DNA from: Patellaria atrata CBS 101060
Taxonomy: Eukaryota
Direction of reading: 5' to 3'
Assembly: GCA_010093705.1 (NCBI GenBank)
Contig: MU006098.1
Location: forward strand, 231,981 to 295,980
DNA length: 64,000 nt
The notes beneath the pieces are model-generated. The model was not told the DNA's origin and searched no databases. It was given only the letters and a program-made list of their open reading frames with translations. The first letter of the stretch is position 1; every line of letters starts with the position of its first letter. The position numbers and the translations under genes are program-made. Positions 6,708 to 8,065 of this stretch are shown in pieces.

Positions 6708-8065
6708 ATGAGGAAAGGCTTGTTACAGAATTTAGTATTGAGCACAGGGCTTTTATCCGCTCACACCTACGGATACATCGTGGATCGCCAGACGACGAAA
6801 CAACCTATTCCTAGCGAGACTGAAAAGGGCATTTCAACAGAATGTAAGAAGTGCCCGTATAGCTTATGTGCGAACAAAGTAGCATATGATTATGAGGCTA
6901 CTTTTAATCTCACATGTTGGACCGAAGGACAATCTATCAATAATGATACGTAAGTAGCGTATGAGTTTCAATAAGTAATCTAGTAAATAACCATTGTCGA
7001 TAGAACATGGCTTAAGACGAATGATGGATGCTATGTGACGCAATGGGATATTGTAGAGTATCCGGGCGACTGTGAGTGTCTACGAAACCTTCCTAAGATT
7101 ACTCCAATTGATAAAGTCTAGTCACAGAAGATCTCCCGTACTGTGGGCGTGTTCGTGAGCAATATACCAGAGCGTCTGCGAGGACTAAGTACAAAAGCGA
7201 GTGTCAAATAAGACCTGATCTTTCTCTGGAAAGGCCCAACTCCTTTAAGATGTACAAGGAAAATGTTGACCTAACACTCACGTGTCGAGCTTCGGACGGT
7301 GAAGAGGTCTTAGGAGACCTGTCCGTAAATTTCAATCTTAAATATCCCGGGACATACTGACCATGTGTTAGTGTATGGTATAAGACAACAGCAAATTGTT
7401 ATGTCAGTCGAACGGGATTGCAATCGACTCGCAGTATGACTACTTATTGATTATATGTTCTTGCGAAACTAACAATTAGACCAGACCTGGACAATCTGGA
7501 GGATTGTGGACCAATTCCTTTCCTGGAATATAAGATGCGCCTCCCAGATCCAGAGCCGACTACTACAGAAACCTCCTTCCCCACTGCAACCCCGGAGATG
7601 AAACGCCATGCCATGGAAGCCGTCAAACTATCTAGGGAAGCTATAAAAGCACACCGAGACTGGCTCGACCGCAGATGGCTGTACAATACTACTGCCGGAG
7701 AAGATTATGTTGCATGTCGGAAAGACATGGCGAATAATAGTAGGATTGTGAAGTTCTATGAATGGGCAGAGCAAATAGTCCCTCAATGTGGAACTTATAT
7801 TTCCAATGGTGAACATACGCTCGAAAAGTGAGTGAAAAAAAGCGAGAACCAAGTGAATTTTCTGACTGGTAGTTTAAGTATACTCCTACTTACGACAGAC
7901 TTCTGCTATGTTAAGGATATTTACACTGATCCAGGATTAACAGAGAGTAAGTGTTTTGGAATACGTATTTTGAATATTACGCTAATCTATAAAAAAGGCA
8001 CTCTACGGTGTATGTCCACATCCAATATCTCCCGGGGACTAGTTGTAGTGCTAACTCAAACATAG
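6708..8065 (+). CDS. Secreted Cys-rich protein with three fungal SH3b-like modules (7 exons; frame of last exon uncertain)
   Basis: Putative signal peptide MRKGLLQNLVLSTGLLSAHTYG. Spliced modules: C...LTCWTEG...TWLKTNDGCYV; C...LTCRASDG...VWYKTTANCYV; C...PQCGT...ILLLTTDFCYV. Canonical introns at 6950-7003, 7072-7121, 7321-7371, ~7433-7484, ~7828-7879 and from ~7947. Confidence 0.7.

Follow-up and report, generated by a model that had tools for sequence, protein, structure and literature searches.

Three diverged copies of a fungal SH3-like wall-binding domain in an enzyme-free, probably secreted protein of Patellaria atrata

Gene structure and module organisation

In our study, a 64,000-nucleotide stretch of DNA from the Dothideomycete Patellaria atrata CBS 101060 (contig MU006098.1; hereafter the window) was found to contain, at positions 6708–8109 of the + strand, a real fungal gene of eight exons encoding an enzyme-free protein of three modules (m1, m2, and m3). 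The raw frames of positions 6300–8500 held open reading frame (ORF) fragments only, whereas splicing at seven GT..AG introns, each of 50–56 nucleotides, gave a single open frame that starts with the ATG at 6708. The spliced frame was 1038 nucleotides long, encoded 345 amino acids with 14 Cys residues, and ended with a TAA stop codon at 8107–8109 (Table 1). A sequence-only reading of the locus had proposed that the fragments yield three modules after splicing, and the 345-residue frame agrees with it. No paralogue of the gene was found inside the 64-kb window by tblastn.

The gene structure was obtained with a homology-guided spliced protein-to-DNA dynamic-programming aligner, which was applied to positions 6500–8400 with the relatives P0002, P0003, and P0011 as guides. 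Each of the three guide proteins gave the identical seven introns, including those that border the micro-exon at 7998–8009. Within the part of the window that encodes the putative signal peptide, the same aligner places a spurious intron, and in related loci it adds some long introns at the 5' end. For intron 4, the alternative acceptor TAG at 7477–7479 was rejected because the frame was lost; the CAG at 7482–7484 is correct, as in the public protein. The donor of intron 3 (GTCCGT, 7321–7326) was unusual; this splice is probably real, since the site was conserved in 13 of 18 related loci. The contigs of two public DNA runs, which came from one sample and may be the assembly's own source, matched positions 6500–8300 without differences.

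The public model of the gene, P0001 (hypothetical protein M501DRAFT_138052 [Patellaria atrata CBS 101060]), was recovered in a search with the exon 5 product; it contains 349 amino acids and stops at 8065, the same end that the sequence-only reading had given. Residues 1–331 of P0001 were identical to our corrected model, after which P0001 reads through the micro-exon and translates intron 7 as an 18-residue tail. A conserved aromatic-Pro-x-Cys motif was found to end nine full-length relatives as well as the 23-member family alignment, and the window encodes this motif at 8066–8109, in a frame other than that of P0001. The tail of P0001 was disordered in its AlphaFold model, with a predicted local distance difference test score (pLDDT) of 28–38, and the corresponding C-terminus of the orthologue P0002 was modelled at pLDDT 74–82. 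With the corrected tail, module 3 gains its fourth Cys, Cys338. The motif of the relatives, together with the three-guide spliced alignment, places the end of the gene at 8109 and indicates that the public 3' end, which misses the 12-nucleotide micro-exon, is mis-annotated; our model corrects it.

Table 1. Coordinates of the gene, its sites, and the neighbouring genes, in positions of the window.
Feature	Position	Strand	Description
Exon 1	6708–6949	+	Start codon, hydrophobic N-terminus, N-terminal strand, early module 1 (Cys46, Cys49, Cys54, Cys70)
Putative signal peptide	6708–6764	+	Residues 1 to about 19; hydrophobic N-terminus
Intron 1	6950–7003	+	54 nt, phase 2, GTAAGT..TAG; codon 81, two residues ahead of Trp83
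Exon 2	7004–7071	+	W-L-K-T ... CYV section of module 1
Intron 2	7072–7121	+	50 nt, phase 1, GTGAGT..TAG; codon 104, seven residues ahead of Cys111
Exon 3	7122–7320	+	Cys111 (final Cys of module 1), short connector, early module 2 (Cys131, Cys158)
Intron 3	7321–7371	+	51 nt, phase 2, GTCCGT..TAG; codon 170, two residues ahead of Trp172
Exon 4	7372–7433	+	W-Y-K-T ... CYV section of module 2
Intron 4	7434–7484	+	51 nt, phase 1, GTATGA..CAG; codon 191, seven residues ahead of Cys198
Exon 5	7485–7827	+	Cys198, Pro/Thr-rich linker, predicted helix 227–248, early module 3 (Cys268, Cys292)
EMKR site (exon 5)	7595–7606	+	
LDRR site (exon 5)	7664–7675	+	
N-x-T sequon (exon 5)	7685–7693	+	
Intron 5	7828–7878	+	51 nt, phase 2, GTGAGT..AAG; codon 305, two residues ahead of Leu307 (Trp-equivalent)
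Exon 6	7879–7946	+	L-L-L-T ... CYV section of module 3
Intron 6	7947–7997	+	51 nt, phase 1, GTAAGT..AAG; codon 328, ten residues ahead of Cys338
Exon 7	7998–8009	+	12-nt micro-exon
Intron 7	8010–8065	+	56 nt, phase 1, GTATGT..CTAAC (branch site)..TAG; codon 332, six residues ahead of Cys338
Exon 8	8066–8109	+	Conserved C-terminus, Cys338 (fourth Cys of module 3), stop TAA
Three-domain H-type lectin	2528–3391	-	288-codon frame; Pfam H_lectin E 7.4e-47, 3 stretches; about 3 kb upstream
Fungal-rhodopsin-type membrane protein	8518–9961	-	Pfam Fung_rhodopsin E 8.9e-11; just downstream; paralogue of the next
Fungal-rhodopsin-type membrane protein	11261–12219	-	Pfam Fung_rhodopsin E 6.8e-12; downstream
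Cytochrome P450	13644–14696		E 9.7e-31; after the rhodopsin-type genes

The chain begins with a hydrophobic signal-like segment, followed by the closely packed m1 and m2, a disordered Pro/Thr-rich linker, and m3. The modules were compared as slices of the 23-member alignment (m1 residues 42–113, m2 127–200, and m3 258–331). Profile–profile comparison gave a probability of 99.5% (E 3.3e-22) for m1 and m2, 97.6% (E 3.3e-12) for m1 and m3, and 96.9% (E 1.5e-10) for m2 and m3. All three contained the pattern Cys ... (L)TC ... W-x-K-T ... CYV that had been read from the spliced fragments; in m3 of the Patellaria protein a Leu stands in place of the Trp and of the Lys, and the Trp was retained in 15 of 23 relatives. 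The Cys residues were spaced by 24/20/21 residues in m1, 27/21/19 in m2, and 24/22/24 in m3, and the four module Cys were invariant or nearly so across the 23 members. The first module was found to contain an extra Cys pair, Cys49 and Cys54, in the loop after the first Cys (the RT-loop equivalent), and this pair was conserved in 21 of 23 members. A phase-2 intron was present inside each module (codons 81, 170, and 305) and a phase-1 intron after it (codons 104, 191, and 328), again as had been read. In the profile alignments the three phase-2 introns shared one column, two residues before the Trp position.

Domain identity and predicted fold

The family profile was searched against the PDB, and matches were found to 8b2g_A (2.1e-10), 8b2f_A (2.4e-10), 8b2s_A (1.9e-9), and 8b2h_A (2.7e-9), all on module 1; besides these four there was no other noteworthy match in the PDB. 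Comparison by hhalign with 15 enzyme-attached repeats from 7 relatives gave probabilities of 98.2% for m1, 98.0% for m2, and 98.4% for m3. The modules are diverged copies of the SH3-like wall-binding domain of fungal lysozymes. According to the available text of the article that described it, this cell-wall-binding domain (CWBD) contains 73 residues, with the disulfides Cys9-Cys53 and Cys33-Cys72 conserved in all examples (PMC10394673, 2023). The same text reports that the isolated CWBD of T. saccata binds M. lysodeikticus cells and not Avicel, that removal of the CWBD lowers muramidase activity, that the CWBD alone has no lytic activity, and that a triglycine contacts Asp6, His8, and Arg10 of the domain in 8B2F (PMC10394673). 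It lists amidase, C40, M23, GH24, GH73, and GH184 enzymes as carriers (PMC10394673); in these enzymes the domain serves to hold the catalytic part on the bacterial cell.

A Pfam scan (E<=0.001) of 150 matches from the family search found SH3_3 in 8 and NLPC_P60 in 2. The SH3_3-positive relatives were fungal and contained two or three near-identical repeats with the same four-Cys pattern (SH3_3 30.6–51.2 bits). The repeats were followed by a C40/NlpC-P60-like part in P0045 (three repeats), P0141, and P0092 (a weak Pfam NLPC_P60 match in the last), by a GH24-like part in P0119, and by another lytic-looking part in P0062, P0097, and P0108; these labels were read from motifs, except for the Pfam NLPC_P60 matches. 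An actinobacterial relative, P0144, contained four repeats and an NlpC/P60 part (NLPC_P60 66.9 bits). The link to NlpC/P60 and GH24 hydrolases that the sequence-only reading had drawn was thus recovered through distant relatives, which join SH3_3 to such parts in the HMMER and Pfam results.

No Pfam catalytic family was found in the Patellaria protein, and its stop codon lies at the same place as in the relatives. The whole chain of 345 residues is fully used by the signal-like segment, the three modules, and the linker; therefore, there is no room for a catalytic domain, in keeping with the earlier description of the protein as catalytic-domain-free.

Other assignments were rejected. The UniRef names of the relatives P0002 and P0004 call them Ig-like; the Pfam ig match (E 0.039) covered 24 residues around the L-T-C motif and scored 14.7 bits against a cut-off of 21.8, and the top fold matches were all SH3/SH3b domains. 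A HMMER match to the animal multi-Ig protein P0143 (E 2.3e-4) was traced to the same L-T-C motif; both matches are due to chance, as is a Pfam zinc-finger match on a 20-residue exon product.

The AlphaFold2 model built from the 23-sequence alignment had a mean pLDDT of 79.7, with values >90 over most of each module; residues 1–22 were disordered, as was the linker apart from the helix 227–248. Foldseek matched the model to 8b2g_A with a TM score of 0.84 (normalised by target) and a root-mean-square deviation (rmsd) of 1.9 Å. With VIA-align, m1 (model residues 36–113) was superposed on 8b2f_A over 74 of 74 residues (Z 12.5, rmsd 1.6 Å). By the same tool, m3 (252–328) matched 9ovi_A (Z 8.1) and the SH3b domains of lysostaphin and ALE-1 (Z 6.7–7.2), and m2 (118–194) matched 4epc (Z 6.6) and 8aol (Z 6.0), within a range of Z 5.2–6.6. 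The model of the orthologue P0002 reached a pLDDT of 84.1 and a predicted template modelling score (pTM) of 0.78. In a Foldseek-independent search of this model against 48,161 chains, 8b2s_B (Z 13.0) ranked first, followed by 8b2g_B (Z 12.5), and each of the 50 listed rows was an SH3/SH3b domain or a protein that contains SH3. On these models all three modules are predicted to be SH3-like barrels, m2 and m3 through middling Z values together with their homology to m1, and the SH3b-like character that the sequence-only reading had assigned to them was recovered by the PDB profile search (E 2e-10 to 3e-9) and by structure comparison. The single-chain pTM of 0.78 further suggests that the modules are held in a fixed arrangement although the linker is disordered, and it is a hint that the fragments might stay together after cleavage. 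In the P0002 model, m2 and m3 (residues 115–294) aligned as a pair with the lipoteichoic-acid-binding tandem SH3b domain of Lactobacillus SlpA (7qeh_A, Z 7.2, 118 of 123 residues, rmsd 4.7 Å; 8alu_A, Z 7.0).

The Patellaria protein resembles the fungal CWBD of the 8B2F/8B2G type in sequence (E 2e-10, and hhalign probability of at least 98% for the three modules), in fold (Z 11.8–13.0, rmsd 1.4–2.0 Å), in the spacing of the four Cys (24/20/19 in the solved domain, the bonds being predicted here), and in the N-terminal order of a signal peptide, putative here, followed by the domain. It differs in containing three diverged copies and no enzyme, whereas the available text of the 2023 paper describes one domain before a catalytic domain (PMC10394673). 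It is also unscored by Pfam SH3_3, contains the extra Cys pair in m1 and a conserved dibasic site in the m2-m3 linker, and has the anchor Arg replaced by Lys in m1; in the family this Arg is lost from most m2 and m3 modules. The tandem-CWBD hydrolases (P0045, P0062, P0108, P0119, P0141, P0092, and P0097) likewise contain tandem domains behind a signal peptide, and the modules of the Patellaria family nest among their repeats in the tree described below; unlike the Patellaria modules, their repeats are near-identical, Pfam SH3_3-positive, and followed by a lytic part. The SH3b domains of bacteria and phages (lysostaphin 5LEO, ALE-1 1R77, and endolysin binding domains) share the SH3b fold (Z 6–8.5) and the tandem use for binding of wall polymers; Trichomonas NlpC/P60 (6BIM/6BIQ) and SlpA (7QEH/8ALU) were grouped with them at the same Z 6–8.5 as wall-targeting domains. 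In contrast to the modules studied here, the bacterial and phage domains showed no detectable sequence similarity, contain no disulfides, and are mostly attached to enzymes or S-layer proteins.

Family conservation, duplication history, and processing

The same three-module plan and C-terminal motif were found in Dothideomycetes (Pleosporales), Eurotiomycetes (Onygenales), and Leotiomycetes (Helotiales), and the nine full-length relatives were 37–45% identical. The closest relatives, which included Helicocarpus and Polytolypa, were represented by P0002, P0003, and P0011. HMMER recovered 149 proteins at E<=1e-3, 63 of them at E<=1e-10, and the ESM Atlas cluster of the protein contained 51 members, all from Ascomycota. 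A metagenome scan with a 10-sequence alignment gave 35 loci, which formed 22 clusters at 95% protein identity. The ratio of nonsynonymous to synonymous substitution rates (dN/dS) ranged from 0.046 to 0.155 in seven pairs of related loci. The family is under purifying selection and is conserved in Pezizomycotina.

The conservation bears on the idea that the gene is a functionless, decaying remnant of a CWBD-hydrolase gene from which the catalytic exon was lost. There are indeed enzymes that carry two or three CWBDs in tandem (P0045 contains three with a C40-like part), and the modules are no longer recognised by Pfam. Against this, the splice sites are intact and the frame stays open across the eight exons, every one of the 14 Cys is conserved, the same architecture and C-terminal motif occur in Dothideomycetes, Onygenales, and Leotiomycetes, and dN/dS is 0.05–0.16; we consider such decay extremely improbable.

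The metagenome contig L001 (1–1345) was found to be an intron-free counterpart of L014 (1–1508), 90–95% identical in four blocks. It skips exactly the predicted introns 493–548, 748–810, and 1239–1296 of L014, and the alignment runs into both flanks, so that L001 resembles an assembled, spliced mRNA from a close homologue. This gives indirect evidence for expression of family members and for their splicing at the sites that correspond to codons 104, 170, and ~329. Four relatives, P0019 (654 amino acids), P0057 (360), P0121 (409), and P0148 (332), contained two diverged modules with long Ser/Thr/Pro-rich or short-repeat tails. No Pfam family was found in these proteins, which might be surface-displayed forms.

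Intron positions were counted in 19 distinct loci, from which the low-scoring or fragmentary L029, L031, and L035 had been dropped and in which L014 stands for the L001/L014 cluster; introns >200 nucleotides were ignored, and most sampled loci belong to another subfamily. The site and phase of intron 1 were common to 14 of 18 related loci, intron 2 was common to 17 of 17, and intron 3 to 13 of 18. In 17 of 18, m3 was followed by a phase-1 intron located no more than 3 residues from codon 329. Intron 4 was found in only 1 of 18 and intron 5 in 0 of 18; instead of intron 5, introns were found at codon 308 in phase 1 (three loci), codon 311 in phase 0 (two loci), and codon 315 in phase 1 (one locus). 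The complete pattern of a phase-2 intron inside and a phase-1 intron after each module was confined to the Patellaria gene among the loci examined. Either introns 4 and 5 were present in the ancestor and have been widely lost, or they were gained later at equivalent positions; the intron pattern alone is not the direct evidence of triplication for which it had been taken.

The triplication itself was supported by a module tree together with the shared intron sites. The tree contained 42 modules (from 14 of the 23 members), 15 enzyme-attached repeats, and 8 bacterial repeats, in 76 columns. The modules m1, m2, and m3 grouped together (95/95), and their clade, which has a long branch, lay within the fungal enzyme-attached CWBDs. 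Within it, m3 formed a clade (94/90), as did m1 and m2 together (88/77), and each module clade contained all species. This topology fits two old internal duplications, the first probably separating m3 from the ancestor of m1 and m2, and the second separating m1 from m2. Exon pairs 3+4 (261 nucleotides) and 5+6 (411 nucleotides) are multiples of three and are bounded on both sides by phase-1 introns, so that such a pair can be duplicated without a break of the frame. Two duplications of a 1-1 phase-symmetric exon pair may have produced the three modules before the family spread through Pezizomycotina, and the gene would then be a clean example of domain amplification through such a pair.

The protein is probably secreted, as judged from its hydrophobic N-terminus; an N-terminal hydrophobic 9-mer was found in 20 of 20 Met-started members. 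N-x-S/T sequons were present at residues 67, 79, 258, and 274, and a sequon at the start of m3 was present in 15 of 23 members. The Pro/Thr linker with EMKR and LDRR that the sequence-only reading had placed before module 3 was located in the spliced sequence (Table 1). All 23 members contained [KR]R in the m2-m3 linker, and in 11 of them the distance from this site to the first Cys of m3 was exactly 13 residues; the corresponding site of the Patellaria protein is LDRR (residues 251–254), in a segment with pLDDT from below 50 to 62. Dibasic sites numbered 29 in 1259 linker residues (0.023) and 18 in 5909 residues elsewhere (0.003), although the members are related and these counts are not independent. 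Apart from the dibasic site, the linker could not be aligned among relatives, and the retention of the site is meaningful because the rest does not align. Substrates of Kex2-type convertases contain exposed dibasic KR or RR, often as L-x-K/R-R. The retained site fits a Kex2-type cleavage that would give an m1-m2 piece and an m3 piece.

The linker could also be read in the opposite sense, with the modules as carriers and an active peptide freed from the linker at EMKR and LDRR in the style of a Kex2 precursor. Between these two sites lies a stretch of 23 residues for which a helix is predicted (227–248), and the enrichment of dibasic sites in the linker holds in 23 of 23 members. The helical insert, however, is specific to the Patellaria protein, two or more linker sites were found in just 7 of 23 members, the linker is unalignable among relatives, and the conserved parts are the modules and not the linker. 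In the available text of the articles that define them, Kex2-processed repeat proteins (KEPs) contain several near-identical short core peptides flanked by dibasic sites (PMC6339444, PMC7329392). The Patellaria protein contains no repeated core peptide, which that definition requires (PMC6339444, PMC7329392); it has one or two dibasic sites, and its repeats are folded domains of 75–90 residues. A peptide precursor is therefore very unlikely.

Proposed wall binding, its alternatives, and the genomic neighbourhood

As a whole, the gene is best explained as encoding a secreted, Kex2-cut, non-lytic, multivalent binder of bacterial wall polymer, to which we assign a probability of about 0.6. The step from fold to function is one that we infer: binding of the wall is predicted by homology and is the best guess and the most likely function. 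The protein would enter the endoplasmic reticulum, form seven disulfides, predicted to be 46-90, 70-111, 49-54, 131-179, 158-198, 268-314, and 292-338, and be N-glycosylated. A Kex2-type convertase in the Golgi would probably cut it behind the conserved L-x-[KR]-R, which precedes the first Cys of m3 by 13 residues, and the protein would then leave the cell as a multivalent binder of bacterial wall polymer with no lytic activity. The most likely ligand would be the peptide of peptidoglycan, bound through m1 with the basic residue that matches Arg10. This binder could coat, clump, sense, or mark bacteria. The equivalent of Arg10 was an Arg in 15 of 15 enzyme-attached repeats and a Lys or Arg in 21 of 23 m1 modules; in the Patellaria protein it is K47 in m1, Q132 in m2, and R269 in m3. 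Because the basic residue is kept mainly in m1, this module is expected to keep a CWBD-like site, and m2 and m3 would have drifted to other or weaker ligands.

Several observations weigh against this explanation. The Arg10-equivalent was basic in only 5 of 23 m2 and 7 of 23 m3 modules, so that two of the three modules may bind another ligand or none, and the extra Cys pair in the RT-loop region of m1 could change its specificity. Pfam SH3_3 (PF08239, gathering cut-off 27 bits) was not found in the six exon products or in P0001, even at E<=10. The identity to the solved domain in the structural alignment was just 21–24%, and the fold matches of m2 and m3 (Z 5–8) fall in the range that the tool calls middling. 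The module tree rests on 76 columns and long branches, for which long-branch attraction is possible, and introns 4 and 5 may be later gains because they are nearly absent from the related loci. A search for sequencing runs gave no RNA run for the gene; both public runs that it found consisted of DNA-like contigs without splice joints and are silent on expression.

The same facts lend some weight to the reading that the fold is the same but that the modules have ceased to recognise peptidoglycan and bind another polymer or protein, for example teichoic acids, the wall of the fungus itself, or a glycan of the host or substrate. The role of the protein would then be that of an adhesin, a wall protein, or a shield. 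Most m2 and m3 modules have lost the ligand-anchoring Arg, the extra disulfide of m1 lies in a loop region, the m2 and m3 pair resembles the lipoteichoic-acid-binding domain of SlpA (Z 7.0–7.2), and the two-module relatives P0019, P0057, and P0121 have tails that resemble wall anchors, rich in Ser/Thr/Pro or made of repeats. The SlpA match at Z ~7, however, is not decisive, the basic anchor residue is present in 21 of 23 m1 modules, and the CWBD partners described in the available text of the 2023 paper are all enzymes that act on bacterial walls (PMC10394673). We consider a different ligand rather doubtful, though it deserves more weight than decay of the gene or release of a linker peptide.

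If the protein is indeed a binder of bacterial wall polymer, a wider proposal can be made tentatively: Pezizomycotina may contain a family of enzyme-free, convertase-matured, trivalent peptidoglycan lectins, a counterpart of LysM effectors and of the peptidoglycan recognition proteins (PGRPs) of animals. Such proteins would recognise, clump, or mark bacteria, or mask wall fragments, and after cleavage their two fragments, one with two modules and one with a single module, would have different specificities. The likeness to LysM effectors is one of outline, in that these too are secreted and consist only of repeated carbohydrate- or wall-binding modules, as the available text of PMC3861536 describes them. 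The fold, however, is unrelated, the Patellaria protein gave no LysM match in Pfam, and the main ligand of LysM is chitin in the same text (PMC3861536).

The sequence-only reading had offered the protein as a candidate for an undescribed function; the domain itself was already described in 2023 (PMC10394673). No enzyme-free multi-CWBD fungal protein was found in the literature searched, although an unlabelled example in the figures or supplement of PMC10394673 is possible. In that literature the combination is new, namely an enzyme-free architecture of three modules, divergence beyond the reach of Pfam, an extra disulfide in m1, and a conserved convertase site. The wall-gripping module described in 2023 from lysozymes and peptidases thus also exists free of an enzyme, in a triplicated, strongly diverged, and previously unrecognised form. 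It occurs in saprobic Dothideomycetes, Onygenales, and Helotiales, whose proteins are labelled in databases as hypothetical or, wrongly, as Ig-like. If the protein binds bacteria, it would offer a handle on how moulds recognise and handle bacteria without lysis, as well as a ready-made multivalent binding reagent.

The neighbouring genes are unrelated, and no functional gene cluster was found around the locus. Besides the two paralogous rhodopsin-type genes and the cytochrome P450 gene listed in Table 1, the neighbours included Kri1 and a 2OG-Fe(II) oxygenase. Upstream, the frame of the three-domain H-type lectin encodes another all-lectin protein near the SH3-like gene.

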